Source of the DNA: Nitrospirota bacterium
GTDB taxonomy: Bacteria; Nitrospirota; Thermodesulfovibrionia; Thermodesulfovibrionales; SM23-35
Assembly: GCA_040753615.1 (NCBI GenBank)
Contig: JBFMDO010000075.1
Coordinates: 308 to 64,307 of the forward strand
Direction: 5' to 3'
Length of the DNA: 64,000 nt
The position numbers and the translations under genes are program-made. Positions 9,846 to 43,128 of the stretch are shown in pieces (the stretch's first letter is position 1; every line of letters starts with the position of its first letter). The notes under the pieces are model-generated. The model did no database searches. It had not been told where the DNA came from and saw nothing but the letters and a program-made list of their open reading frames with translations.

Positions 9846-10680
9846 AGTAGTAGGGATAAGGTTTAAGCCGAGCGGCAAGATATACGACTTTGAAGTAGAC
9901 GGCGTGGATGTAAAAATGGGCGACGTTGTGGTTGTAGAGTCTGAACTCGGGATGAGCATAGGAAGTGTAGTTACATCCTGCCATACAGTTGAAGAAACTG
10001 AAAAAAAGTTTAAGAAAGTCATTCGAAAGGCAAATGAAGAAGACATCCGCCAGAGAGAGGAAAACAAAAATCTTGAAATAGAGGCAAGGAATAATTGTCT
10101 TGATAGGATTGAAGCTCGTGGACTGCCTATGAAACTCGTCTCTACAGAAGTAACCCTCGATAGAAAACGGATTATCTTTTATTTTACTGCGGAAAAGAGG
10201 ATTGATTTCAGAGAACTTGTTAAGGACCTTGCTGCAAAATTCAAGACAAGGATTGAGATGAGGCAGATAGGCATAAGAGATGAAGCAAAGATGTTGGGTG
10301 GTTTGGGTATATGTGGAAGGGAACTATGCTGTACAAGATTTCTGACATCTTTTGAGCCTGTATCTATCAAAATGGCAAAGAAGCAGGAACTCACTCTTAA
10401 CACCACTAAATTATCCGGTATTTGTGGAAGACTTATGTGTTGCCTGAGTTTTGAATATGCAGACGAGGATAATTCTCTGCAAAAAGCTGAATCACTACCT
10501 CTTTCAGAAGAGCCCAATATGACTGAAATAGTTGTTGACTCGACTGATTCCCCTGCGGACGTAAATAAACCTGTCAGTCCCCCAGAGACCAGTTCACAGC
10601 AACTCCCACCCCAACAGGAAAAACGAAAAAGATTTCCAAGACACAGGAGAAAACGCAGGAGGATGTATCATAAAAAGTGA
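9829..10680 (+). CDS. PSP1 domain protein (YaaT/RicT-like)
   Basis: PSP1 C-terminal domain with RELCC…LMCCL Cys motifs. The true start may be the ATG at 9838 (MPEVVGIRF). Basic C-terminal tail. Confidence 0.9.
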   Translation: MLNMPEVVGIRFKPSGKIYDFEVDGVDVKMGDVVVVESELGMSIGSVVTSCHTVEETEKKFKKVIRKANEEDIRQREENKNLEIEARNNCLDRIEARGLPMKLVSTEVTLDRKRIIFYFTAEKRIDFRELVKDLAAKFKTRIEMRQIGIRDEAKMLGGLGICGRELCCTRFLTSFEPVSIKMAKKQELTLNTTKLSGICGRLMCCLSFEYADEDNSLQKAESLPLSEEPNMTEIVVDSTDSPADVNKPVSPPETSSQQLPPQQEKRKRFPRHRRKRRRMYHKK

Positions 10681-12281
10681 AGAGTAAATTCTATATTACG
10701 ACCCCAATATATTATGTGAATGATATACCCCATATAGGTCATGCATATACAACCATAGCAGCAGATATCCTCGCAAGATATAATCGTCTAAAGGACAGAG
10801 AGGTGTTTTTTTTGACAGGGACAGATGAACATGGCCAGAAGGTTGAAAAGGCAGCAAAAGAAAAGGGGATGATTCCTAAAAAACATGCTGACTTAATGGT
10901 AGAAAACTATAAAGCACTCTGGGCAAAGCTTAATATTCAGAATGATGCGTTTATACGCACAACAGATCCAGAACACATAAAGGTTGTTCAGGCAATATTA
11001 GAAAAACTTTATGAAAAGGGTGAAATACAAAAGAGGCTATATTCAGGCTGGTACTGTATTCCGGATGAACGTTTCTGGACAGAGAAAGAAGTTGTGGATG
11101 GAAGATGCCCAGACTGCAAAAGACCTGTCGAGCATATTGCAGAGGAAAACTACTTCTTCCTAATGTCGAGGTATAAGGAAAAACTTATAAGGCATATTGA
11201 GGAAAATCCACATTATATCCTTCCAGAGACACGGAAAAACGAGGTTTTAGGTTTCCTGAAAAATAATCCACTCGGCGACCTCTGTATTTCAAGGCCAAAA
11301 CACAGGCTTTCATGGGGGATACCACTGCCTTTTGATGAAAATTTTGTTACATATGTCTGGTTTGATGCACTTTTAAACTATTACTCGGCAACAATATATC
11401 TACCTCCAGAAATACGGGATACAGGATACAGAAGCCAGATATTAGAAATTTCAGAGAAAAATCTCAAATCTCAAGATTGGTGGCCACCTGAACATCATTT
11501 ATTAGGAAAAGATATCCTAACAACACATGCTATATACTGGTCAGCCATGTTAATGGCAATTGAACTGCCGCTTCCAAAAAACATCTTTGCGCACGGGTGG
11601 TGGACTGTTGAAGGGAAAAAGATGTCCAAGTCACTCGGCAATGTTGTAGACCCGTTAAGGATGACTGAGAAATACGGAGTTGATGCATTCAGATATTTTC
11701 TTTTCAGGGAAGTGCCATTCGGACTTGATGGAGATTTTTCTGAACAGGCGCTTATAAAACGTATAAACACTGACCTCGCAAATGACCTCGGGAACCTATT
11801 AAGCCGTTCTTTAACAATGATAGAAAAATATAGAAATGGAAAGATTCCTCCTCCTATAGAAAGCAAAGATAGAGATGGACTGGAAAAAAAAGTAAAGGTA
11901 TGGTTTACGGATTCTGAGAATAATCTTTTAGCCAGTTTCGACGGATTCATCAAAAAACTGGAATTTCATAATGCCCTTACCCAATTATGGGTTGTTATAA
12001 ATGAGATAAATGAATATATTCAACATGCATCCCCTTGGAAGGAAAGAGATCAAGATGTCCTTTCAAATATACTTTATATCTTAGCTGAAGCCCTGCGCAT
12101 CATTGCAATTTATATCTCTCCCTTTATGCCGTCCACTGCAAAAAAGATATGGGAACAACTTAACCTTGAAGGAGATCTATCCACTATAAATATTAATAAC
12201 GAGGCAATTTGGGGAAGGCTAAAGACAGGGAAAGAGATTAAAAAAGGGTCACCATTATTTCCGAGGATTAATATTCAGTGA
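10677..12281 (+). CDS. metG: Methionine--tRNA ligase (short form without a C-terminal tRNA-binding domain)
   Basis: HIGH motif PHIGHAYT, KMSKS present, Zn knuckle CPDCKRP. The GTG start overlaps the upstream stop. Confidence 0.95.
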   Translation: MKSKFYITTPIYYVNDIPHIGHAYTTIAADILARYNRLKDREVFFLTGTDEHGQKVEKAAKEKGMIPKKHADLMVENYKALWAKLNIQNDAFIRTTDPEHIKVVQAILEKLYEKGEIQKRLYSGWYCIPDERFWTEKEVVDGRCPDCKRPVEHIAEENYFFLMSRYKEKLIRHIEENPHYILPETRKNEVLGFLKNNPLGDLCISRPKHRLSWGIPLPFDENFVTYVWFDALLNYYSATIYLPPEIRDTGYRSQILEISEKNLKSQDWWPPEHHLLGKDILTTHAIYWSAMLMAIELPLPKNIFAHGWWTVEGKKMSKSLGNVVDPLRMTEKYGVDAFRYFLFREVPFGLDGDFSEQALIKRINTDLANDLGNLLSRSLTMIEKYRNGKIPPPIESKDRDGLEKKVKVWFTDSENNLLASFDGFIKKLEFHNALTQLWVVINEINEYIQHASPWKERDQDVLSNILYILAEALRIIAIYISPFMPSTAKKIWEQLNLEGDLSTININNEAIWGRLKTGKEIKKGSPLFPRINIQ

Positions 12282-17118: not shown

Positions 17119-19527
17119 TCATTCTTTCTCCACAACCTTTCCAATACTCACAACCTTAGCTTCTCCTTCAACATCCATAAGCCTCACGCCCTGAGTGTTT
17201 CTTCCGAGGATTGAAATGTTTTGTGCAAGTGTGCGTATAAGCTTGCCAGAACTTGTTATCATCACGACTTCGTCCTCATCCCTCACCTGCATAAGTCCAA
17301 CTGCCTTGCCGCCTTTTTCAGTAATCTTTATTGAAATAACTCCTTTGCCACCTCGTCCCTGAACAGGATATTCTTCTATTTGTGTTCGTTTGCCAAGTCC
17401 TTTTTCTGTTACGGTAAGGATAGATGTCTTTTCTTCTGCAACTTCTGCTGAGACAACCTCGTCTCCCTTCATGAGTTTAATCCCTTTAACCCCCCTCGCA
17501 GTGCGTCCTGTCTCGCGCACGTCTTCTTCATTAAACCTTATTGAAAGGCCATTTTTTGTACCTATAATAAGATCGCTTTTGCCATCAGTCTTTCTTACAG
17601 CAATCAGTTCATCTCCTTCATCGAGTGTTACAGCGATAACACCTTTTCCCCGAGGGTTGCTATATTTCTCCAGCGCAGTCTTTTTTACTATGCCATTTTT
17701 TGTAAACATCACGAGAAAGCCCTCTTTAAAGTTGCGGACAGGGAGAGCTGTTGTAATCAACTCGCCTTCTGAAAGGGCAAGAAGATTTACAAGTGCCTTG
17801 CCTTTTGCTGCCCTTCCTGCCTCTGGTATCTGATATGCCTTTAGCCAGTAAAGCCGTCCGAGATTCGAAAAAAAGAGCATGTAGTCATGAGTTGAACTAA
17901 TAAAGAGTTCTTCAACAAAGTCCTCTTCTTTTGTCTCCATTCCGATTGAACCTTTTCCTCCACGGCGCTGGCTTCTGTATGCACTAAGCGGGTTTCTCTT
18001 TATATACCCAGTATGAGAAAGTGTAATTACCATTTCTTCCTCGGTTATCAGGTCTTCTATGGTAATCTCTTTTGTTTCCGAGGTAATCTCTGTCCTTCTC
18101 TCGTCTGTGTATTTGTTCTTGATCTCAAGAAGTTCATCCTTGATAATCTTAGAAACAAGGGCGTCGCTTCCGAGTATAGCCTTCAATCTCTCTATCTCTT
18201 TTAGAGTATCAGCAAATTCTTTTACTATCTTTTCCCTTTCGAGTCCTGTTAATCTCTGGAGTTTCATGTCTAAGATAGCCTGTGCCTGTGTCTCTGACAA
18301 TGGATAATCCCTCATTAAGGCGTCCTTAGCATCCTGAGGTGTCTTTGAGCCTTTTATAAGGGCTATTATCTCATCCAGATGGTCAAGTGCTATCTTAAGT
18401 CCTTCAAGTATATGCGCCCTTTCTTCTGCCTTCCTGAGTTCAAAGCGTGTTCTTCTAAGTACAACATCTCTTCTATGCTGCAAGAAGTAGTCAAGAAGTT
18501 CTTTTAGGTTTAAAATCTTCGGTTGTCCATTAACAAGTGCGAGCATAATTATTCCAAAGGTAGTTTCCATCTGTGTGTGTTTATAGAGATTGTTCAGTAC
18601 AACCTGCGCCATCTCGCCCCGTTTGAGTTCAAGCACAACCCTTATCCCATCCCTGTCAGATTCATCTCTAATCTCAGATAGCCCCTCGATCTTCTTTTCT
18701 TTCACAAGCTCGGCAATCTTTTCAATTAATCTTGCCTTGTTTACCTGATAAGGAATTTCAGTAATAATAATATTCTCGCCGCCCCTGTGTTCGCGCTCTA
18801 TCCTCGCCTTTGCCCTGATCTTAATAAGTCCTCTTCCGCTATTATATGCCTGAATAATTCCGTCTGCGCCATAAATGGCGCCCCCTGTTGGAAAATCAGG
18901 ACCCTTTATAACAGTGGCAAGGTCTTTTATGCTCACATGGGGATTTCCGAGCAACATTACAAGTCCATCTATAATTTCCCCAAGATTATGTGGCGGTATG
19001 TTTGTGGCCATACCAACAGCAATTCCTGATGAGCCGTTTACAATTAAATTTGGGACCCTCGATGGCAATATAATAGGCTCTTTTGTTGTCTCATCAAAAT
19101 TCGGGATAAAATTGACGGTATCTTTATCTATATCAGCAAGGAGTTCCTCTGCAATTGCTGAAAGCCTTGCTTCTGTATATCTATATGCAGCAGGCGGGTC
19201 TCCGTCAACAGAGCCAAAATTTCCCTGACCATCAACAAAGGGATATCGCATATTAAAGTCCTGAGCAAGCCTTACGAGTGCATCATAAACAGCCGTATCA
19301 CCATGGGGGTGATATTTCTTTAAGACCTCGCCTACAACACCAGCGGATTTTGAATATTTCTTTCCGGGAAGAAGTCCTTCCCTGAACATTGCGTAAAGTA
19401 TCCTTCTCTGAACAGGCTTGAGACCATCCCTTACTTCGGGAAGCGCCCTGCCTATGATTACGCTCATTGCGTAATCAAGATAAGAAACTTTCATTTCTTC
19501 TTCTATGCTTACTGGTAACTTTGCCAT
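17119..19527 (-). CDS. gyrA: DNA gyrase subunit A
   Basis: [13 protein letters not shown], catalytic Tyr region [11 protein letters not shown]-terminal beta-pinwheel repeats. 802 aa. Confidence 0.97.
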
Positions 19528-23571: not shown

Positions 23572-25116
23572 TCACACTTCCCTATGCGTTTCGTATATCT
23601 CCTCAAAGTAATGGGATGTTTCCTTAAATGCCTGCAATATTCGTGGGTCAAAGTGATGGGGCATTGTCCTTCCGTCACCTTCGGTTATAATGTGATATGT
23701 TTTCTGATGGTCAAAAGCAGGCTTATAGACCCTTGCATTTCTCAGGGCATCATACTGATCTGCGATATTCAATATCCTTCCAGAAAGCGGTATCTGTTCT
23801 CCTTTTAAGCCATAGGGGTATCCACTACCATCCCATCGTTCATGATGAGAGAGGGCAATCTCCTTTGCAAGCATAAGCCTCACATGGTCGCCTAAAATCT
23901 TCGCGCCGTATATAGTATGCTGCTTCATCTGGTCAAATTCCTCTGGAGTCAGCTTCCCCGGTTTTCTTAGAATGTCCGGATGGATATGTATCTTGCCAAC
24001 ATCATGCATTTGTGCCTGAAGACGCACTAAATTTATAAAGTTTTCTGACAGTCCAAGTTGTTTCGCGATTATACTGCAGTATGCACCAACCCTTATGATA
24101 TGATTCCCTGTGTCTTCATCATTTGCTTCTGCTGCTCTCGCAAGGGCATAGACAATATAGTCAAAGGCATCCTCTGTCTCTCTCACCTGTTTAGAAAGAG
24201 ACATCAGAAACATGCTCTGCATAACAAGGCTGTTTAAAACAGAGGCATCATATGCTGTCACATCCCTGCCGTAATTGAGCGCAAGGATAACAAGCTTATC
24301 ACTGCAATAGCAGACCATATTTGACACAGCTATGCTGTTAGGTTCAAATTTCGCTATATCTGCTATAAATGGACAGCATTCGGATTTTCCAATATCTGCC
24401 TTGTTGGAAAATTCAATCTTTGTTTGCCTTTGATATTGTGAGGTGAAGGCAGTCAACTTGCTGCTAAAATGATTTTCGATCTCATGCTTCGTGATTTCAC
24501 CCCCGAGGCATTGATATTTAAACCATTGCCATTGCTTTGTCTTGTCAGGCAGACCGATAATAATAGTCTCAGGTTTTTCTACCATGTCTTCAGTCTTTCT
24601 GATACACATGCTTACGATGTTGTCCAGCATAGGCATTAGATTAAAATGAAGTGGATCGAAATGTTTTACGATCTCCTCGCCATACGAGACCATGCTGTTA
24701 ATATTTAGATAGGCAGAATTAAGTCTTTCATTGAGGCTCTTTACTTTTAAGAGCATATTAATCCTCGCCAGTATCTCTCCGTGGTCAAATGGTTTCGATA
24801 TAAAATCATCGGCGCCTGACTCTATGCCCCTAACCCTGTCTTTGCTTGACCCTAATGCAGTGACCAATATGACAGGAATATTCCGGTATATTTCTTCTTT
24901 CTTGATCATTTTGCAGACATCGAACCCGTTAATTTCCGGCATCATAACATCCAGTAACACGAGGTCAATCTTATTTTGACTAATCTTCTCCATCGCTTCC
25001 CTGCCGTTTACTGCCTTGATGACTTCATATCCACGGGCGGTGAGCATTGCCTCAAGGAGTCTAAGATTTGACGGCTCATCATCAACACACAAGATATTTG
25101 GTTTTCCGATAGTCAT
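23572..25116 (-). CDS. Response regulator with a C-terminal HD-GYP domain (putative c-di-GMP phosphodiesterase) and an unassigned middle domain
   Basis: REC domain (ILCVDDEP…LLDVMMP). HD motif MHDVGK, HHERWDGSGYPYG. Confidence 0.9.
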   Translation of the reverse strand: MTIGKPNILCVDDEPSNLRLLEAMLTARGYEVIKAVNGREAMEKISQNKIDLVLLDVMMPEINGFDVCKMIKKEEIYRNIPVILVTALGSSKDRVRGIESGADDFISKPFDHGEILARINMLLKVKSLNERLNSAYLNINSMVSYGEEIVKHFDPLHFNLMPMLDNIVSMCIRKTEDMVEKPETIIIGLPDKTKQWQWFKYQCLGGEITKHEIENHFSSKLTAFTSQYQRQTKIEFSNKADIGKSECCPFIADIAKFEPNSIAVSNMVCYCSDKLVILALNYGRDVTAYDASVLNSLVMQSMFLMSLSKQVRETEDAFDYIVYALARAAEANDEDTGNHIIRVGAYCSIIAKQLGLSENFINLVRLQAQMHDVGKIHIHPDILRKPGKLTPEEFDQMKQHTIYGAKILGDHVRLMLAKEIALSHHERWDGSGYPYGLKGEQIPLSGRILNIADQYDALRNARVYKPAFDHQKTYHIITEGDGRTMPHHFDPRILQAFKETSHYFEEIYETHREV

Positions 25117-25130
25117 AAGTTCTCCTTTAT

Positions 25131-25219
25131 CAGACCAAAGACTACAGACTACAGACCTTTTTATTTTTTAGTCTTTAGTCCGTTGTCTGTTGTCTTCGGT
25201 CTTTGGTCTGTTGTCTTAA
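25131..25219. repeat. Inverted arrays of GTCT-NNN heptads: four units on the minus strand (25131-25157), a T-rich loop, and seven units on the plus strand (25171-25219)
   Basis: Units read directly: GTCTTTA GTCCGTT GTCTGTT GTCTTCG GTCTTTG GTCTGTT GTCTTAA. Left arm reverse complement: G GTCTGTA GTCTGTA GTCTTTG GTCTG. The arrays span the kinase stop (25161) and sit just upstream of the RR SD/ATG (25116). Confidence 0.85.
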
Positions 25220-26435
25220 TGGATATTACAAAACTAAATTTGCTGCCCTTTCCATATTCACTCTCCACCCATATTCTACCGCCGTGGAGTTCAACGAGTT
25301 TTTTTGTCAGGGCAAGCCCAATACCTGTTCCTGCATACTTTTTGGTGTACGGAGATTCGATCTGTGTAAATTCCTTGAAAAGTTTATCCATGTCTTCAGG
25401 TTTTATGCCGATACCTGTATCAGCGACAGAAATTTCAATAAAATCGCTTAATCCCCCCTCGCCCCCCTTTAGCAAAGGGGGGACGGGGGGGTTTTGTCCT
25501 TCCTGTATCGTGTATCCTGTATCGTGCATCGTGACACGTCGCGCAGCGACGTGCACGGAGCCCCCCTCCTGTGTATACTTGAGTGCATTGTCCATGAGAT
25601 TAAACATAATCTGTTTCATTACACCTGAATCTGCTTCAATCTCTATCTCAGCCTCACGAGCTATATCAAGGTTTAAACGAATATTCTTTTCCACCGACTT
25701 TTCTTTGAATAACATAACCATGCTCGCCAAAAGGTCTTTTAGAAAGAATTTGGTTTTTTTCAACTTTTCTACGCCGGCATCCAGCTTTGCTATATCAAAT
25801 ATGTCATTGAGCAGCCCTATCAGAGATATCCCGCTCTTGAGAACATCTGACACATATTCCTTTTGTTTCTCATTCAATTCTCCATATAAACCGTCCTGAA
25901 GAATCTGAGAAAATCCTATAATAGAATTCAAAGGTGTAATTAGTTCATGACTCATGTTTGCAAGAAAATCAGACTTTGTCTTATTTGCAGCTTCAGCCAA
26001 AATTCTTAGCTCCTCTGCCTTTTTTAAGGCTTCTTTAAGAGCTTCCTCCGAATCTCTTAATCGCAGAATTGCCTGTACTCGTGCCAGCAGTTCCCTGCCT
26101 GAAACAGGACGCACAATATAGCCATCTGCTCCTGCCTCAAGTCCTTTCGCCTGTATCTCTGAAGAAATCTCTTTCCCGGAGATTAAAATTATATGGGTAC
26201 CAAAAAGCTCCTTGTCTGATTTGATCTGTTTGCAGACATCAAAGCCGTATATGTCAGGGAGAACTACGTCAAGCAGGATCAGGTCAGGATGTTCTTTTCT
26301 TGTTGTTTCGATACATTCATTCCCTGTTGCAGCTTCAAGTACTTCGTAGCCTGCTGAACGCAAGATGTTCACATTTATATTGAGAATGTCCGACTCATCA
26401 TCAACACAGAGAATCTTCGCTCGTGGAATAATCAT
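25161..26435 (-). CDS. Hybrid sensor kinase: N-terminal REC + coiled coil + HisKA + HATPase_c, with a loop insertion in the ATPase domain
   Basis: REC (ILCVDDESD…LLDVVLP). H-box FLANMSHEL. N/G boxes. A 30-aa insertion TMHDTGYTIQEGQNPPVPPLLKGGEGGLSD precedes DTGIGI. Confidence 0.9.
   Translation of the reverse strand: MIIPRAKILCVDDESDILNINVNILRSAGYEVLEAATGNECIETTRKEHPDLILLDVVLPDIYGFDVCKQIKSDKELFGTHIILISGKEISSEIQAKGLEAGADGYIVRPVSGRELLARVQAILRLRDSEEALKEALKKAEELRILAEAANKTKSDFLANMSHELITPLNSIIGFSQILQDGLYGELNEKQKEYVSDVLKSGISLIGLLNDIFDIAKLDAGVEKLKKTKFFLKDLLASMVMLFKEKSVEKNIRLNLDIAREAEIEIEADSGVMKQIMFNLMDNALKYTQEGGSVHVAARRVTMHDTGYTIQEGQNPPVPPLLKGGEGGLSDFIEISVADTGIGIKPEDMDKLFKEFTQIESPYTKKYAGTGIGLALTKKLVELHGGRIWVESEYGKGSKFSFVISIKTTDQRPKTTDNGLKTKK
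25448..25493. repeat. G/C-run hairpin element, copy A (ttaatcccccctcgcccccctttagcaaaggggggacgggggggtt), inside the kinase CDS
   Basis: Core stem CCCCCCTTT/AAAGGGGGG with loop AGC on the plus strand (GCT on the coding strand), flanked by additional C-run/G-run pairing. Near-identical to 27513-27559 and related to 42113-42153. Confidence 0.85.
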
Positions 26436-26520
26436 ATATTCTCCATCAAAAGGCTTTTTACCCTCACTGGCAACTCTCTTGCCAAATAGAAATAATTGGA
26501 ATTGGGGATAATTGGAATTC

Positions 26521-26549
26521 TTGACAATACCTTATGGCATTGATACAAT
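26521..26549 (+). promoter_or_regulatory. Sigma70-like promoter TTGACA-17 nt-TACAAT
   Basis: -35 at 26521-26526, -10 at 26544-26549. The ATG at 26555 begins 6 nt after the -10 and no SD lies between them. Confidence 0.5.
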
Positions 26550-26554
26550 TATGT

Positions 26555-26815
26555 ATGTCAACAGCAATAGATACCCTTAAAGTATATGAAAGGCTTAAGG
26601 CAGCAGATCTGCCTGAAAGAGCTGCAAAAGAAATCGCAGCGGTTATTAAAGATATGATTGAGGAACGCCTCGTTACAAAAGCAGACCTTAAGGAGCTTGA
26701 AGTAAATCTTCGCTGTGAAATGGCAGAAATAAAAGCAAGTATCATTAAATGGGTTGCAGGAATGCTTGTTGCACAGGCAGCCGTCATTACAGCATTAGTT
26801 AAACTTCTCCAATAA
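26555..26815 (+). CDS. DUF1640-like coiled-coil protein with a C-terminal TM helix
   Basis: MSTAIDTLKVYERLKAADLPERAAKEIA…KWVAGMLVAQAAVITALVKLL. The start is placed at 26555 on promoter geometry; the ORF track begins at 26534. Confidence 0.7.
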   Translation: MSTAIDTLKVYERLKAADLPERAAKEIAAVIKDMIEERLVTKADLKELEVNLRCEMAEIKASIIKWVAGMLVAQAAVITALVKLLQ

Positions 26816-26836
26816 TCCATCATTTTTAATTACTTC

Positions 26837-27205
26837 TTATATCCCAATTAGCCTTTCCATTACCTTTGGCAATTCTCTTGTATTAATCGGCTTCGATATA
26901 TAATCATCAGCCCCTGCCTCCAGAATTTTTTCCCTGTCTCCTAACATCGCAAAGGATGTTACGGCGACAATTTTTATATGTTTAGTTTCAGGATCATTTT
27001 TTAATATCTTTATTGCATCATACCCGTTCAGAACAGGCATCTGAAGATCCATAAGTATCAAATCAGGTTTATGTTCCTTAGCCATTTTTATTCCTTCCTC
27101 ACCATTCTCTGCCTCGATAATCTCATAGCCGTAATAAGTCATTATATCCTTTATCAAGCGACGATTTTTCTCATTATCTTCAACTATGAGTATCTTCTTT
27201 GACAT
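26837..27205 (-). CDS. Single-domain response regulator (CheY-like receiver)
   Basis: ILIVEDNE…ILMDLQMP…SKP. The ATG at 27205 lies 6 nt after AAGGAG; the GTG at 27208 is the alternative. Confidence 0.9.
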   Translation of the reverse strand: MSKKILIVEDNEKNRRLIKDIMTYYGYEIIEAENGEEGIKMAKEHKPDLILMDLQMPVLNGYDAIKILKNDPETKHIKIVAVTSFAMLGDREKILEAGADDYISKPINTRELPKVMERLIGI

Positions 27206-27220
27206 CACAAACTCCTTTTT

Positions 27221-27280
27221 AGACTATAGACCAAAGACTACAGACCTTCTTTAATTTTAAGTCTTCGGTCTTTGGTCTAC
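27221..27280. repeat. Second inverted GTCT-NNN heptad array at a kinase-stop/RR-start junction
   Basis: Left arm reverse complement: G GTCTGTA GTCTTTG GTCTATA GTCT. Right arm: GTCTTCG GTCTTTG GTCTACT. There is a perfect 12-bp pairing tagaccaaagac/gtctttggtcta. Confidence 0.85.
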
Positions 27281-29853
27281 TCTATGGGTATCACAAAGGT
27301 AAACTTGCTCCCTTTTCCATATTCACTCTCTGCCCAAATCTTTCCGCCGTGAAGTTCAACAAATTTCTTCGTTAAAGCCAGTCCAAGCCCGGTGCCTTCA
27401 TATTTCTTTTCATATGGTGTTTCCAGTTGTGAGAATCCCTTAAAAAGTTTATCCATGTCTTCAGGTTTTATGCCGATACCTGTGTCTTCAACAGAGATTT
27501 CAATGAAATCGCTTAATCCCCCCTCGCCCCCCTTTAGCAAAGGGGGGATGGGGGGGATTTGTCCTTCCTGTATCGTGTATCCTGTATCGTGCATCGTGAC
27601 ACGTCGCGCAGCGACGTGCACAGAGCCTCCCTCCGGTGTAAACTTCACTGCATTGCTCAGAAGATTGAACATTATCTGCTTGAGTTTCCTCTCATCCGCT
27701 TCAATCTCAATATCAGCATCAGGTTCGATATCAAGACTCAATTTAATGCCGTGCTTCACCGCCTTTTCTTTCAACATTGACATAGATACATCAAGAACAT
27801 TTCTTAAAAGAAATCTTGTCAATTCAAGTTCCATTTTACCTGACTCTACTTTTGATAGATCAAGGATTTCGTTTATGAGATTTAATAAGTGCCTGCCGCT
27901 CCCTACGATGTCATTGATATATTCCTTTTGCTTTTCGTTAAGTTTTCCGTACATCTCATCCTGAAGTATCTCTGAAAATCCTATTATTGAATTCAAAGGC
28001 GTCCTCAATTCATGCGACATGTTTGCAAGAAAGTCGGACTTCGCCTTGTTAGCCGAAATTGCCTGAAGTTTTGACATCTCTGCCTCCTGCCTTCGCTGGA
28101 TAAGTTCAGAGTTTAAAAACTCAAGTTCACGATTTGCATTTTCAAGTTCCTCTGTCCTCTCTCTTACTAATTCTTCAAGATGCTCACGGTATTTCCTAAG
28201 CTCCTCCTCTACCTGTTTGCGCTCGGTAATGTCCTGAAAAGAACCGCGTACTTTCACAACCCTTCCGTCTTCAATAATCGGGTGCCCAATTGTTCTAACC
28301 CATTTATGATTTCCTTTAGCTGTTATTATCTCCAATTCCAAATCGTAGGGCTTTCCAATTTCAATCGCTTCTCTGACCGCTGTTTCGATTTTGATGCGGG
28401 ATTCACCATGGTAGAAACTGAGACCTAATTCTGCGTTTGTTTCTGCTCTGGGATCAAGTTCATGAATTCGGGCTACTTCATCTGTCCACGTTCCCTTAAG
28501 GCTAACTGGATCAAACTCCCAACCCCCGACTTTTGTAATTTTGCCGGTTTCATTTAGCAGTTCTTCATGGTATTTTAAAGCCTTTTCCGCCTGTTTAATC
28601 TCGGTGATATCTGTAAAAGCTATGACTGCTCCAATAATATTGCCATCTCCTATAATAGGAGTGCTTATATATTTAACCGGGAAACTTGTGCCATCCTTTT
28701 TCCAGAACACCTCTGTATCCACAGTATGGCTTACTCCATCCTTATAAGCGCGGCAGATTAGACACTCCTCTGCTGGATATGGACTTCCATTTGCTTTCGA
28801 ATGGTGCCAGATTGTATGGCTATTTTTACCAATAAGTTCCCCAACTTCATATCCGAGCATTTTAGCCGCAGATGGATTAACAAATATGTGATTCCCATAT
28901 TGATCTAAGCCCAAAATCCCTTCGCCTGCTGAGTTCAGAATCAGTTCGTTTTGACGCATGAGCCTTTTAATTGCCTTTTCCGCCTGCTTGCGTTCGGTAA
29001 TTTCCTGTTGAAGAAGGATATTTGCTTTTGAAAGCTCAGCAGTACGTTCTTCAACTTTTCTCTCCAATTCGTCATGAGCCTTCTGAAGCTCTTCCTCTGC
29101 CTGCTTGCGTTTCTGTTCGGTCTGTATCAGGCGTTGGGCAGCCAGTCCAATCCCGCTCATGCCGGCTATCCAGAGCAGAACGCAAACAAGTGTAAAAGTT
29201 AAGATATGTCCACGCTCAACAGCAATAAAGGAGTCCATAGGAATCGAAATGCTGATCCCGCCCCGAATGTCTCCTACACGGTATCCCTGCTTAGCATGGC
29301 ATTTTAGACAACCTTTTTCAGTAATTAACGGACTCATTAGCCGCATGTATTCTCTGCCTTCCAGTTTTTCAACCGAACTGATCTCGATCTCTCCACGCTC
29401 AAATGCATGGAGTGCAATGGTTTCCCACGAGTCAGGAGCATTCTCGGGACGGATTGGATTTAAGCTCGTGATATGTCCGCGAACACCAAGCTTCTGCTTC
29501 TCCAGTTCATGCACCTGGCGTGTCATATAAGCAGGATTCATTAGCGTTAGCAGTTTGCCCGATGGTGTGGTTATATCGCGCTCAGGTATGTGGGACAGAT
29601 GAGGGTTCGGCAGCGTCTCATTGGTAACCGGCACGTAGACCCCGCCGTGACCAGCGTTCCATCGGCGGTATATGATATCTTTCTCGTAAGTTGCCCGTGC
29701 TTGGATTTTCGCTTGTTCAAGTATCCCCTGTTTTGTGTCAACTATGTGCCACATCAGTGATGCAACAATGATAATCGTCCACGCCACTGCTACGACCCAA
29801 CTATAACGTTTCAGTTGGAGGGAAGGCAGTTTAACCTTTTCAAGAGCATTCAT
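27277..29853 (-). CDS. Sensor histidine kinase: TM, periplasmic Tll0287-like/DUF3365-like domain with CxxCH, TM, coiled coil, 2 PAS, HisKA, HATPase_c (with the same loop insertion)
   Basis: CLKCH at aa 182-186 (nt 29296-29310). PAS cores. H-box FLANMSHEL. Insertion TMHDTGYTIQEGQIPPIPPLLKGGEGGLSD. Confidence 0.9.
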   Translation of the reverse strand: MNALEKVKLPSLQLKRYSWVVAVAWTIIIVASLMWHIVDTKQGILEQAKIQARATYEKDIIYRRWNAGHGGVYVPVTNETLPNPHLSHIPERDITTPSGKLLTLMNPAYMTRQVHELEKQKLGVRGHITSLNPIRPENAPDSWETIALHAFERGEIEISSVEKLEGREYMRLMSPLITEKGCLKCHAKQGYRVGDIRGGISISIPMDSFIAVERGHILTFTLVCVLLWIAGMSGIGLAAQRLIQTEQKRKQAEEELQKAHDELERKVEERTAELSKANILLQQEITERKQAEKAIKRLMRQNELILNSAGEGILGLDQYGNHIFVNPSAAKMLGYEVGELIGKNSHTIWHHSKANGSPYPAEECLICRAYKDGVSHTVDTEVFWKKDGTSFPVKYISTPIIGDGNIIGAVIAFTDITEIKQAEKALKYHEELLNETGKITKVGGWEFDPVSLKGTWTDEVARIHELDPRAETNAELGLSFYHGESRIKIETAVREAIEIGKPYDLELEIITAKGNHKWVRTIGHPIIEDGRVVKVRGSFQDITERKQVEEELRKYREHLEELVRERTEELENANRELEFLNSELIQRRQEAEMSKLQAISANKAKSDFLANMSHELRTPLNSIIGFSEILQDEMYGKLNEKQKEYINDIVGSGRHLLNLINEILDLSKVESGKMELELTRFLLRNVLDVSMSMLKEKAVKHGIKLSLDIEPDADIEIEADERKLKQIMFNLLSNAVKFTPEGGSVHVAARRVTMHDTGYTIQEGQIPPIPPLLKGGEGGLSDFIEISVEDTGIGIKPEDMDKLFKGFSQLETPYEKKYEGTGLGLALTKKFVELHGGKIWAESEYGKGSKFTFVIPIE
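27513..27559. repeat. G/C-run hairpin element, copy B, inside the kinase CDS
   Basis: ttaatcccccctcgcccccctttagcaaaggggggatgggggggatt. Two mismatches to copy A. Confidence 0.85.
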
Positions 29854-40893: not shown

Positions 40894-42102
40894 ATGAGAA
40901 GTTATTTTAAGTTTTTGTATTTAGTATTAATTCTTATATCTATTACAGCTTGTGCAAAGCCAGCAGTTAAATGCACATCTCCTGAAGATAATCCGCCTCA
41001 TCATTATCTCAGGGGTATGGAGAATATTGAACAGGGGAAGGTTGATGTTGCGAAAGAGAAATTTGAAAGGTCACTCTACTGTGATGAAAAATTCTCTCCT
41101 GCGCACAGTGGTCTTGCGATTGTATATGCTGAAAAGGCTAAGGCAGAGAGCGATCCCAAATTTAGAGTTATTGAATCTGAACGTGCTAAAGAATACCTGA
41201 AAAAGGCGGATAAATTTACCAAGACTGATGAAGATAAGTTCATCTATTTTTTAGCAGTCATGAGAGTGAACACTATACTGAAAGAAGAAGATTGGCTTGA
41301 AGATACAAAGGATGCATTCGATGACTGCAAGGACCTGAAGGTTGACGAGAAGAAACTTATCTATTACCAGGGCGTAGAGGCTGCTGATTATTTTATGGGA
41401 CTGGCATATCTGGAGGCAAAGGAATTTCAGAAGGCACGTGATAAATTTGCTGACGTTCTTAATATGAAGAGAGAAGGCAAATGGCATGAAAAGGCAGATA
41501 GGGCATGGAAGCGTGTTGATAAGATAGTGCGGGCAATGGCAGGAATAACAGTAGGGGATGTGGGCAAACAGATAGCAATTAAGGATACCGTCACAAGGGC
41601 AGACCTTGCAGCCCTTCTTATTGATGAGCTTAAACTGAATAAGTTGTTTGCAGGCCGTATCCCTTCACAGTCACAGGAAGAAAAGATGCAAGCGGAATTT
41701 ACACCTGCAGATGTGCTTAATCATAAGTTCAAGGAAGAAGTTCTAACGATAATGAAATGGAAGGTCAGGGGACTTGAACCCAGATATGATGAAATTACAA
41801 AGGCATATCTTTTTAAACCCGCAGAGCCTGTATTAAGGAAAGAAATGGCATTAATCCTCGAGGATGTGCTGATAAAACTTACAGGTGACGAGACGATTTC
41901 GACTGCCTATTTCGGTCATGATAGATCACCATTTCCTGATGTAAAACCAACAGCACCATGGTACAATGCTGTTATGAATATGACCACAAGAGGAATAATG
42001 GAACCTGAACTCTCTGGTGACTTTAGAGCAGAATCACCTGTTGACGGTGCAGAGGCTATTCTTGCAATAAGGGTGTTAAGACAGAAATTAAATATTTATT
42101 AA
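40894..42102 (+). CDS. Lipoprotein with N-terminal TPR-like repeats and C-terminal SLH-like repeats
   Basis: Lipobox ITAC. TPR-like helices. SLH-like FPDVKPTAPWYNAVMNMTTRGIM…VDGAEAILAI, plus VTRADLAALL and LRKEMALIL. Confidence 0.55.
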   Translation: MRSYFKFLYLVLILISITACAKPAVKCTSPEDNPPHHYLRGMENIEQGKVDVAKEKFERSLYCDEKFSPAHSGLAIVYAEKAKAESDPKFRVIESERAKEYLKKADKFTKTDEDKFIYFLAVMRVNTILKEEDWLEDTKDAFDDCKDLKVDEKKLIYYQGVEAADYFMGLAYLEAKEFQKARDKFADVLNMKREGKWHEKADRAWKRVDKIVRAMAGITVGDVGKQIAIKDTVTRADLAALLIDELKLNKLFAGRIPSQSQEEKMQAEFTPADVLNHKFKEEVLTIMKWKVRGLEPRYDEITKAYLFKPAEPVLRKEMALILEDVLIKLTGDETISTAYFGHDRSPFPDVKPTAPWYNAVMNMTTRGIMEPELSGDFRAESPVDGAEAILAIRVLRQKLNIY

Positions 42103-42112
42103 AAATCCACCC

Positions 42113-42153
42113 TTAATCCCCCTTTGCTAAAGGGGGACTGAGGGGGGATTAAT
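42113..42153. repeat. G/C-run hairpin element, intergenic copy (opposite orientation to the kinase copies)
   Basis: ttaatccccctttgctaaagggggactgaggggggattaa. Its reverse complement aligns with copies A and B. It lies between the stop at 42102 and the SD/ATG at 42166. Confidence 0.8.
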
Positions 42154-42165
42154 ATAGGAGGTATT

Positions 42166-43128
42166 ATGAAAAAGATATTTGCAATAGTTGCATGTATGAT
42201 TTTCCTTGTAGCAAGTATTGCCATAACTCAGGAACAACCTTTAGAACAAACCCAGCCCTCAATGCCTTCACAGGAACAACAAGTCCCATCTCCAGTTGAT
42301 GAACGGTTTCAAAAGGCAAACGAGTGGCTCAATCAAAATAATCTGTCTGTTACTGGGTCTTCCTCCGATGCTTTCAGAAGCGGCTATATCCTTGTAGTTG
42401 GCGAGGGTCTTCCAAAAGAAGGCACTGTAAGTGCCGGCAAGAAAAGAATAACCGCAGAAAGGGCAGCAGAGGTAATGGCATACAGGAAATTGGCTGAGTT
42501 TCTGGATGGTGTTGCAGTAGTCGGAGACTCATTAGTAAAGGACGCTTCTTTGGAGTATGACATTGTCAGAACAGCTGTAGCAGGTTTTGTGAAGGGTGCA
42601 CAGGTCGTTTATAAGGAATATAGCAAAGAAGAAGAAATAGCCCTCGTAATAATGAAAGTGGGCATGACAGGCCCTGGCAGTTTTGCTGATGCACTCTATG
42701 GAAAGATATTAAAACCTGAACTAAAGAAAGATTTAGTAGAGCCTCAGCCATCAACAGAGTATAAAACACAGCCTATACCACTTGATGAAAAACATGATGG
42801 ACTTATTGTTGATGCTACAGAACAAAATTTCAGGCCTGCACTGATAAACAGGATATTTACTCAGCAGGGCGAGGTAATTTATGACCCATCAAAAGTAAGC
42901 CAAAAGGTGCTTGTAGAGGAGGGTTGCGGTGAATATACAAACAGCGTTGATAAGGCAAAGGCAGCCCTCGAACAAAGAGGCACAAAAAATCCTTTGATTA
43001 TAAAAGCTGTCGGAACTGTAAGCCCGTCAGACCTCCAGATTTCGGATGACGATGCAGTAAGGATATTTTCTGCAAACCAGAAGGCAAATTTTCTTGCAAG
43101 CGCTAAGGTTGCATTTGTGCTGAGATAG
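42166..43128 (+). CDS. Exported LPP20/FlgP-like protein with a Q/P-rich N-terminal linker
   Basis: Signal peptide. GYILVVGEGLP…RITAERAAEVMAYRKLAEFLDGVAV…AGFVKGAQVV matches the LPP20-like pattern by eye. Confidence 0.45.
   Translation: MKKIFAIVACMIFLVASIAITQEQPLEQTQPSMPSQEQQVPSPVDERFQKANEWLNQNNLSVTGSSSDAFRSGYILVVGEGLPKEGTVSAGKKRITAERAAEVMAYRKLAEFLDGVAVVGDSLVKDASLEYDIVRTAVAGFVKGAQVVYKEYSKEEEIALVIMKVGMTGPGSFADALYGKILKPELKKDLVEPQPSTEYKTQPIPLDEKHDGLIVDATEQNFRPALINRIFTQQGEVIYDPSKVSQKVLVEEGCGEYTNSVDKAKAALEQRGTKNPLIIKAVGTVSPSDLQISDDDAVRIFSANQKANFLASAKVAFVLR

Follow-up and report, generated by a model that had tools for sequence, protein, structure and literature searches.

A repeat-derived in-frame insert shared by two paralogous histidine kinases of a Nitrospirota bacterium: probable gene conversion at a repeatedly occupied β-hairpin tip of the HATPase_c domain

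Two paralogous histidine kinase genes, here called A and B, lie within a stretch of 64 000 nucleotides from a Nitrospirota bacterium (GenBank assembly GCA_040753615.1, contig JBFMDO010000075.1; this whole stretch is referred to as the window, and positions are counted from its first letter) and share an in-frame, GC-rich block that is far more alike in the two genes than are its flanks. A sequence-only reading of this region had proposed selection on the nucleotide sequence or RNA structure, recent gene conversion or independent insertion of one element as possible reasons. The comparisons described below make it probable that the block contains a repeat-derived in-frame cassette located at a repeatedly occupied β-hairpin tip of HATPase_c, and that the near-identity of the A and B copies is the product of a recent, short gene-conversion tract.

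The insert in kinases A and B

Kinase A (25161–26435, minus strand) is a hybrid REC–HisKA–HATPase_c histidine kinase of 424 amino acids, as judged from its open reading frame (ORF), translation and Pfam matches, and kinase B (27277–29853, minus strand), a paralog separated from it by 2 kb, is an 858-residue Tll0287-like/PAS/HisKA/HATPase_c histidine kinase by its ORF and Pfam matches. Both score above the Pfam gathering thresholds (HATPase_c 94.5 bits and HisKA 66.6 bits for A; 104.1 and 85.2 bits for B), and the motifs of the histidine kinase core, SHELxTPLN, NAxK(Y/F)T and DTGIGI (the H, N and G1 boxes), are found in both. The A protein is 100% identical to a protein from a Nitrospirota metagenome-assembled genome (MAG).

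Between GGSVHVAARRV and FIEISV.DTGIGI, both kinases carry a 30-residue segment, TMHDTGYTIQEGQ(N/I)PP(V/I)PPLLKGGEGGLSD, which is encoded by a 30-codon in-frame insert at 25443–25532 in A (TMHD...GLSD) and at 27508–27597 in B, on the minus strand in each case; the two copies differ at two nucleotides, both of them non-synonymous. The loop of about 30 residues and every feature that the sequence-only reading had described in it were recovered at the positions given there, and its view that such a loop is normally short was borne out by comparison with loop-free relatives. Positions 5–108 of the HATPase_c profile match 134 residues of A, indicating extra residues, and the spacing from the N box to the G1 box is 62 residues here compared with 34, by the same measure, in relatives lacking the insert, which read ARR-DGD-FIEISV, a tight turn, at this site. 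On these sequence comparisons the loop is a true insertion.

The same reading had asked where the loop lies with respect to the ATP lid. In an AlphaFold2 model of A (mean predicted local distance difference test score, pLDDT, of 83), residues 302–331 form a low-confidence loop (pLDDT <60) between the β-strands 293–301 and 332–339, and the ATP lid, also of low confidence, is a distinct stretch at 359–365. The model places the insert at the tip of the β-hairpin that links the strand following the N box to the strand preceding the G1 box of HATPase_c, and the approximately 30-residue Pro/Gly-rich loop is probably disordered. From the known topology of the Bergerat fold, the hairpin tip would be directed away from the nucleotide pocket.

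Three nucleic acid motifs are found in the block, each of which occurs in B at its coordinate in A plus 2065 (their positions are given without strand). A nested GC hairpin, AATCCCCCC-tcg-CCCCCCTTTagcAAAGGGGGG-ac-GGGGGGG, occupies 25445–25499 in A, where it is predicted to fold and scores 68.9 bits against a covariance model (R1; see below), and 27510–27564 in B, where the copy is the top match of the model (71.9 bits) and nearest to the family consensus. Four tandem heptamers (GTATCGT GTATCCT GTATCGT GCATCGT; period 7 and 4.3 copies according to Tandem Repeats Finder) at 25505–25532 encode TMHDTGYTI in A, and the same array is present at 27570–27597 in B. An 8-bp palindrome, CACGTCGC/gca/GCGACGTG, lies at 25535–25553 in A and, unchanged, at 27600–27618 in B. 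All three motifs had been thought to encode the loop; this holds for the heptamers and the GC hairpin, but the palindrome sits in the β-strand codons for VHVAARRV, outside the insert. The description of the block as a single element is likewise right as to its origin as an inserted repeat and needs amending otherwise, since the insert is composite and the GC hairpin alone is widely dispersed.

Near-identity of the block

A was compared with B over the 275 C-terminal codons that they share, aligned without gaps and anchored on codons. Nucleotide identity is 71% overall and 95–98% in 60-nt windows across the block, which marks out a sharply bounded stretch of raised identity in otherwise diverged paralogs. 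Segments 25441–25556 and 27506–27621 differ at two of 116 nucleotides (25484 and 25492) and 25378–25556 differs from its B counterpart at eight, confirming the approximate counts made earlier by eye. The flanks are indeed far more diverged (p-distance of ∼0.35), and two or fewer differences in 116 nt would be expected at that divergence with a probability of ∼5e-19. Synonymous differences between A and B affect none of the 27 eligible loop codons and 67 of the 144 flank codons (39/84 upstream and 28/60 downstream; Fisher's exact test, 4e-7). Folding, also proposed in the earlier reading, gives a strong structure: the mRNA strand of the block folds at −57 kcal/mol (z = −3.6), and the plus strand as DNA gives z = −5.9.

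Evidence for a conversion tract

Three further Nitrospirota assemblies, designated L001, L126 and L129, were used for comparison, of which L001 is an independent Logan assembly from another sample. The gene order of window positions 23572–29853 (a histidine kinase, two single-domain response regulators, a hybrid REC–histidine kinase and a REC–HD-GYP regulator) is kept in all three. The L001 counterpart of A, A' (P0002), is 76% identical to A over the queried catalytic core; it lies in the conserved gene order, and its loop site holds the insert found in A. The L001 kinase B', which occupies the place of B, has about 85% identity to B over the catalytic core; at the loop site, it reads GGSVHITARTVT-PPNLPLDKGRQGGV-IEITV, which corresponds to a sister hairpin with the core CCTCCCCTTAGATAAGGGGAGG and no heptamers. 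The B-lineage kinase of L129 has the same sister hairpin as B', and its presence in both identifies it as the ancestral state of the B lineage.

Across the four sequences, site patterns switch at the block. Upstream of it (423 nt), 69 of the 78 informative sites back orthology by grouping A with A' and B with B', five group A with B and four group A with B', whereas within the tract A equals B. Downstream (222 nt), the corresponding counts are 19, five and two; all five sites that join A to B lie no more than 45 nt from the insert, and all but one of the 19 that support orthology lie beyond nucleotide 62. In the loop itself, A and B differ at two positions, B and A' at six and A and A' at eight. 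Since the distance from A to B is below that from A to A', the A and B copies coalesce after the species split, and the two differences of A are derived, because at 25492 and 25484 the base of the family consensus is found in both B and A'.

The mismatch map and the four-taxon patterns delimit a maximal homogenized tract of 25378–25575 in A and 27443–27640 in B, one end of which falls between 25557 and 25575 and the other between 25395 and 25378. Within it, B retains B-type bases in a patch comprising 25419–25431 and 25440. The insert and the VHVAARRV codons are both of A-lineage origin and so were transferred from A to B. In a segment of about 40 nt at the G1 box, the A–A' distance is 0.32 and the B–B' distance is 0.17, a pattern that suggests homogenization from B to A. 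The exchange therefore appears mosaic and was probably bidirectional.

These observations lead us to propose the following course of events. The cassette would be repeat-derived and consist of the four heptamers and the nested GC palindrome of about 55 nt, with the short strand-codon palindrome just before it. The A-type cassette and the neighboring β-strand codons would have overwritten the sister hairpin of the B lineage by recent non-reciprocal recombination, and the adjoining G1-box segment of about 40 nt would have been homogenized, probably from B to A. Homology arms for this exchange were probably provided by the highly conserved codons of the N and G1 boxes. Among the explanations put forward earlier, recent gene conversion is thus the one that finds strong support, from the different insert of B', the switch in site patterns and the two A–B differences set against eight between A and A'. 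A conversion tract of this kind mimics strong constraint, so that the loop will confuse both orthology and selection analyses of these kinases.

A similar case is found in another genome, L127 (55% GC): the copies of a TRDEGR...VVLTSEASDRPSS insert in two of its paralogous kinases are at a p-distance of 0.086, compared with 0.32–0.41 in the flanks; synonymous differences affect four of 24 codons in the insert versus 65 of 120 in the flanks (Fisher's exact test, 7e-4). This recurrence makes cassette exchange between paralogous kinases look general, and such exchange could explain the turnover at the site (see below) without repeated de novo insertion. The heptamer-derived inserts of the two L127 genes (10001–11188 and 17466–19223) are also distinguished by an indel of 42 nt (14 codons), the length of six heptamers, which was aligned inside the TRDEGR repeat region.

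A dispersed family of GC hairpins

A third copy of the hairpin is found in the window at 42100–42154 (63.5 bits), an intergenic position between a stop codon at 42102 and a start codon at 42166, and TTAATCCCCCCTC...CCCCCTTTAGCAAAGGGGG is common to the kinase copies and the reverse complement of this third copy. No copy would be expected in the window by chance. In a collection of species-representative genomes, at least 120 loci contain the exact 19-nt core, compared with about four expected by chance. The loci that bear it span, among others, Nitrospirota, Desulfobacterota, Zixibacteria, Chloroflexi, Gammaproteobacteria, Ignavibacteria, Scalinduaceae, Elusimicrobia and Actinomycetota; some come from long-read MAGs and from an isolate, Chromatium okenii, which makes it unlikely that the dispersed copies are assembly artefacts.

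From the flanks of these loci, the family consensus is a nested palindrome, AAATCCCCCC-nnn-CCCCCCTTTAGCAAAGGGGGG-nnn-GGGGGGATTT, and many copies have two or three inner hairpins within one outer stem. Covariance model R1, built on 25 complete copies, gives 271 strand-hits in 0.82 Mb of core-bearing loci and exactly three sites in the window. Pairing is kept in 91% of cells across 150 R1 matches aligned to the model, and two-sided pair changes occur in 99 cells compared with 45 ± 5 in shuffles (none of 500 as high), the clearest compensatory swaps being from C–G to U–A at each stem base.

In its multicopy, dispersed occurrence and its palindromic, hairpin-forming structure, the family resembles the Rickettsia palindromic elements (RPEs). 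The outer arms AATCCCCCC and GGGGGGATT have the form of the terminal inverted repeats of a miniature inverted-repeat transposable element (MITE) but are inseparable from the stem of what is one whole-element palindrome, and the flanking TTA/TAA bases belong to this palindrome, so that no target-site duplication is distinguishable. A scan of 25000–28000 against Rfam 15 gave no match over the element at E ≤ 1. A BLAST search of annotated plasmids and phages with the hairpin returned no match, probably owing to low-complexity masking. As a candidate intrinsic terminator, the hairpin was rejected; its stem is not followed by a T tract and terminator calling picked out none of the three copies. Searches of the literature by topic and with peptide and DNA strings found no description of the family, and as far as the searchable literature goes, neither the family nor its cross-phylum spread, its occurrence in essential genes or the hot spot in the kinases seems to have been described.

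About a quarter of the family copies lie inside ORFs. Among 125 seed copies, 29 are in frames that remain open over 150 nt or more in each direction (a similar number fall inside ORFs according to a crude gene model), and most of the others separate genes that are co-directional (53) or convergent (12). The copies are found in frame in unrelated protein-coding genes: IspD, RtcA, QueA, GlnRS and a P-type ATPase with two hairpins were identified by Pfam, and a UvrD-like helicase and Mfd were judged from sequence. Four of the six reading frames of the hairpin are stop-free, which accounts for its survival in frame, and all four are used (PPLAKGG, PPFSKGG, PPLLKGG and PPFAKGG), as would follow from random insertion and subsequent selection against stop codons; a selected peptide would not yield this pattern. 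In the GlnRS of C. okenii LaCa (NZ_PPGH01000035.1, ∼1400–1500; locus L022), three tandem in-frame hairpins, PPAPPFTKGGEEK...PPLLKGEEEEKPPFEKGGLGGF, sit between the catalytic and anticodon-binding domains. A small GC-rich hairpin family thus colonizes genes in frame, including the essential IspD, QueA and GlnRS, in free-living bacteria of many phyla. In-frame colonization of genes by palindromic repeats is a textbook oddity of Rickettsia. Where the copies are intergenic, they give rise to spurious Pro/Gly-rich hypothetical ORFs.

Two further observations concern the family and its peptides. The Nitrospirae MAG JACQXB01 ('40_11', a name suggesting a GC content of about 40%; loci L033 and L056) has, at L056, a hairpin nearly identical to the kinase B copy, aatcccccctcgcCCCCC...GGGGGgatggggggatt, in an open frame of about 347 residues for a putative, unrelated protein. 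When 1.84 billion cluster representatives were searched exhaustively with HMMER for the 30-residue insert, only two spurious repeat ORFs were returned (P0121 and P0122), long 'proteins' made entirely of translated tandem hairpin-like repeats (PPLQRGGTGG, PPLPPLCKGG) that are almost certainly spurious gene calls over repeat DNA; a protein word-index search with the insert peptide gave no candidates. In a scan of metagenome contigs, the heptamer array had no match and the heptamer–hairpin junction had four chance matches with neither hairpin nor heptamers nearby, the latter being a weak negative as the collection did not return the source lineage.

A hot spot for inserts in the kinase clade

The loop site was surveyed in the 120 best matches of the catalytic core, of which 104 were measurable. 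The distance from the N box to the G1 box is 34–39 residues in 41 of these homologs and 42–77 residues in the other 63, all of which have an insert of at least eight residues at the loop site. The inserts are unrelated in sequence and resemble translated repeats (for example TRDEGRGTRDE..., ...SARNDN, GQPRGLPLQ, LGLGI...PNPQSP and PPLPRGEMGG), and in the DNA of several homologs every insert examined is a hairpin-forming inverted repeat. The hybrid kinases of L126 and L129, which can be taken as positional orthologs of A in view of the conserved synteny, have wholly different inserts, and hence inserts at this site turn over. In this kinase clade, then, the loop site nearly always holds some hairpin-forming repeat insert, which is replaced between orthologs. 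A single structural site at which inserts accumulate and are exchanged offers natural replicates for the study of how selfish DNA becomes protein and of which sites tolerate it.

The codons just before the insertion point have features of their own. The β-strand palindrome of A and B requires the rare codons CAC, GTC, GCG, CGA and CGT, for which the probability is ∼2e-5 given the peptide and the codon usage of the genome; B' does not have this palindrome. Stems in the codons preceding the insertion point are mostly of 5–9 bp in kinases with an insert and of 2–5 bp in those without (one-sided Mann–Whitney test, p = 0.017), a comparison that includes four insert-free kinases and non-independent sequences and is best regarded as a lead. 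In most insert-bearing kinases of the window, L001 and L126–L133, the SV(R/H)VxAR codons form a short hairpin, and the β-strand hairpins GTGCATGTTCATGCAC of L128 and GTGCGCGTGAGCGCAC of L127 resemble compensatory variants.

A more far-reaching possibility, to which we would give a rather low probability when all of its parts are taken together, is that the β-hairpin tip is a dedicated landing pad for hairpin DNA, marked or primed by the strand-codon hairpin, with cassettes being shuffled among paralogs by way of the N-box and G1-box codons as homology arms, and that the palindrome is an undescribed cross-phylum element. The AAATCCCCCC...CCCCCCTTTnnnAAAGGGGGG...GGGGGGATTT sequence would then be either mobile, for example as a substrate of a single-strand DNA transposase, or a functional nucleic acid signal, and its sequence would be kept by selection even within ORFs.

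Weighing the explanations

Several points weigh against the proposed conversion of a repeat-derived cassette. The polarity and timing of the exchange depend on one outgroup genome (L001) together with L129, and B' itself could in principle be the changed copy. Conversion between A and B does not account for the synonymous deficit between orthologs, described next, and to that extent the explanation falls short. That the hairpin is mobile is deduced from distribution only; neither a transposase (for which no systematic search was made) nor a target-site duplication or empty-site polymorphism was found, and the covariation counts come from an alignment fitted to the model, with both strands of palindromic sites counted. 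As far as the sequence searches go, the composite of heptamers and hairpin is found nowhere else and is private to this kinase lineage, and the loop is presumed, from its open frame, to be translated.

Purifying selection on a functional DNA or RNA hairpin, with a role in regulation, pausing or protein binding, might alone have kept the two copies alike with no conversion. Besides the strong predicted structure, the compensatory pairing changes across the family and the rare-codon β-strand palindrome, the behavior of the core in orthologs speaks for this. All eight differences between A and A' in the loop are non-synonymous, and synonymous changes affect none of the 22 eligible loop codons compared with 90 of 265 in the flanks (Fisher's exact test, 2e-4); the p-distance in the loop is 0.089 compared with 0.29 at fourfold-degenerate sites, and a 35-nt core plus the 3' arm shows no change. 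A comparison of B' with the L129 kinase gives differences at 33% of flank sites (35 of 56 fourfold-degenerate sites) and an identical 22-nt core, all eight differences in the insert being in the outer arms and spacers. Since the hairpin core evolves more slowly than neutral sites between orthologs, something acts on the nucleotide sequence itself, which may be a DNA or RNA function, repair of one palindrome arm against the other or homogenization with other genomic copies. The earlier suggestion of selection at the nucleotide level therefore survives in part, in the invariant core of two lineages and the exclusively non-synonymous A–A' changes, but as a signal separate from and weaker than that of conversion. 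As the sole cause of the A/B identity it already fails: B' lacks the composite and carries a different hairpin, A is closer to B (two differences) than to its own ortholog (eight) and the homogenized tract reaches ordinary G1-box codons. The two derived changes of A, moreover, weaken the outer stem or fall in an internal loop and are uncompensated, which argues mildly against strong selection on the A copy, and the hairpin has neither an Rfam match nor a terminator-like tail. We consider an explanation by selection with no conversion unlikely.

Independent insertion of the same mobile composite into A and B at a preferred target is less probable still. The hot spot, with its variety of inserts in the clade, and the clear dispersal of the hairpin module speak for it, and the small strand-codon hairpin, the stem of which tends to be longer in insert-bearing kinases, is a possible target. 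Against these stands the extent of the near-identity, which runs into the kinase's own codons, both in the β-strand (VHVAARRV, where B' has VHITARTV) and over about 40 nt of the G1-box region. Exact excision of the ancestral sister hairpin of B, which was replaced, would also be needed, and the heptamer array and its junction with the hairpin did not turn up elsewhere in the contigs and proteins searched. This alternative of the sequence-only reading consequently lacks support.

An ordinary conserved protein loop, selected for its amino acids and with incidental nucleotide features, would account for the retention of the peptide in A, B and A' but is hardly credible, since the absence of synonymous differences (0/27 codons between paralogs and 0/22 between orthologs), with every change altering an amino acid, rejects conservation at the protein level, and the CCC/GGG-rich codons in a genome of 39.5% GC, the unrelated inserts of positional orthologs, the low confidence of the modeled loop and the intergenic occurrence of the same DNA all speak against it. 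An assembly artefact, in which a repeat was collapsed or copied between similar genes, deserves equally little credence: it has in its favor the MAG origin of the sequence and the length of the block, which is below that of typical assembly k-mers or reads, but the copies differ at two sites in the block, their boundaries are mosaic, the reading frame is intact in all copies and the independent Logan assembly has the same insert in A'.

Relation to known systems

With conversion of a repeat-derived cassette as the preferred explanation, the closest parallels are to be found among palindromic and heptanucleotide repeats. RPEs (Ogata et al., 2000; summarized in a review of MITEs, PMC10969869) are elements of about 100–150 bp and are confined to Rickettsia. 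Like the GC hairpin, they are described there as small dispersed palindromes, intergenic as well as in frame in many unrelated housekeeping genes, that add a peptide tolerated by the fold (PMC10969869). For neither is a transposase of its own known. The GC hairpin differs in its length of about 45–55 nt, its extreme GC-richness and its modular build, with one to three inner hairpins in an outer stem. It also occurs in free-living bacteria of many phyla, and size and host set it apart from RPE-1 to RPE-10 (PMC10969869). In its survival within genes, the family behaves like the selfish RPEs.

Geobacter metallireducens has multicopy elements of four tandem heptanucleotides, located between as well as within genes, for which a regulatory role was proposed (Aklujkar et al., 2009; PMC2700814). 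Both kinases have the four tandem 7-nt repeats characteristic of the Gmet_H4 element, but the consensus of the latter is GGACCGG (PMC2700814) and that of the present array is ACGATAC/GTATCGT, and the present array was not found elsewhere. Other heptamer arrays of G. metallireducens are drawn as strand-switching hairpins (PMC2700814), which the arrays at 25131–25210 described below resemble. The GC hairpin is absent from the supplementary repeat catalogs of G. metallireducens (PMC2700814). The cassette is accordingly nearest in kind to the RPEs and the Geobacter heptamer elements while being a member of neither.

Ectopic gene conversion of tandem paralogs typically shows the features found here, namely a short near-identical tract, diverged flanks, incongruence between tract and flanks and an outgroup that distinguishes donor from recipient. 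Unlike the usual case, the present one involves a repeat-derived cassette that replaces a different insert, in an exchange that appears mosaic and possibly bidirectional. Repetitive extragenic palindromic (REP) sequences, the REPINs that they form and MITEs resemble the GC hairpin in being short, dispersed, hairpin-forming, mostly intergenic and enriched between co-directional or convergent genes. REPs are marked by a conserved GT(A/G)G head, a strictly extragenic location and restriction to a lineage together with a cognate REP-associated tyrosine transposase (RAYT), and MITEs have a parent insertion sequence and target-site duplications. None of these traits was observed for the GC hairpin, for which no search for a RAYT gene was made; its consensus has no GTAG/GTGG head and about a quarter of its copies are in ORFs. 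The mobile GC clusters and coding palindromes of mitochondria, as in Nematomorpha (PMC6649704), are similarly GC-rich or perfect palindromes in the coding genes of an AT-richer genome with both arms translated, but are organellar and belong to other sequence families.

Genomic neighborhood

In the conserved gene order, the first kinase keeps its catalytic core and differs in its sensor modules, which are Tll0287-like and PAS domains here and dCache, PAS and GAF domains elsewhere. In the host genome (39.5% GC), runs of six or more G or C are rare apart from the three hairpin copies.

Inverted heptamer arrays at 25131–25210 (given without strand) span the 3' end of A as one long, imperfect hairpin, and one of the arms encodes the C-terminal tail of the protein; a sister inverted array after B, at 27220–27279, straddles the 3' end of that gene. 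The 7-nt units of both arrays are GACCAAA/GACTACA versus GGTCTTT/GTCTGTT. The last 18 or so codons of kinase A (KTTDQRPKTTDNGLKTKK) are read from one arm and are lacking in A'; as these codons come from the array, a repeat has also lengthened the C-terminus of kinase A.

Heptamer arrays have been reported in Geobacter and, as short tandemly repeated repetitive (STRR) sequences, in cyanobacteria, and they seem to be a general trait of the present genome. Other period-7 arrays in the window are located at 168–196 (ATAGTCC, 4.1 copies), 2772–2814 (ATTATGC, 4.3 copies) and 11412–11431 (ATACAGG, 2.9 copies), of which the ATTATGC array lies inside an inverted repeat between divergent ORFs.

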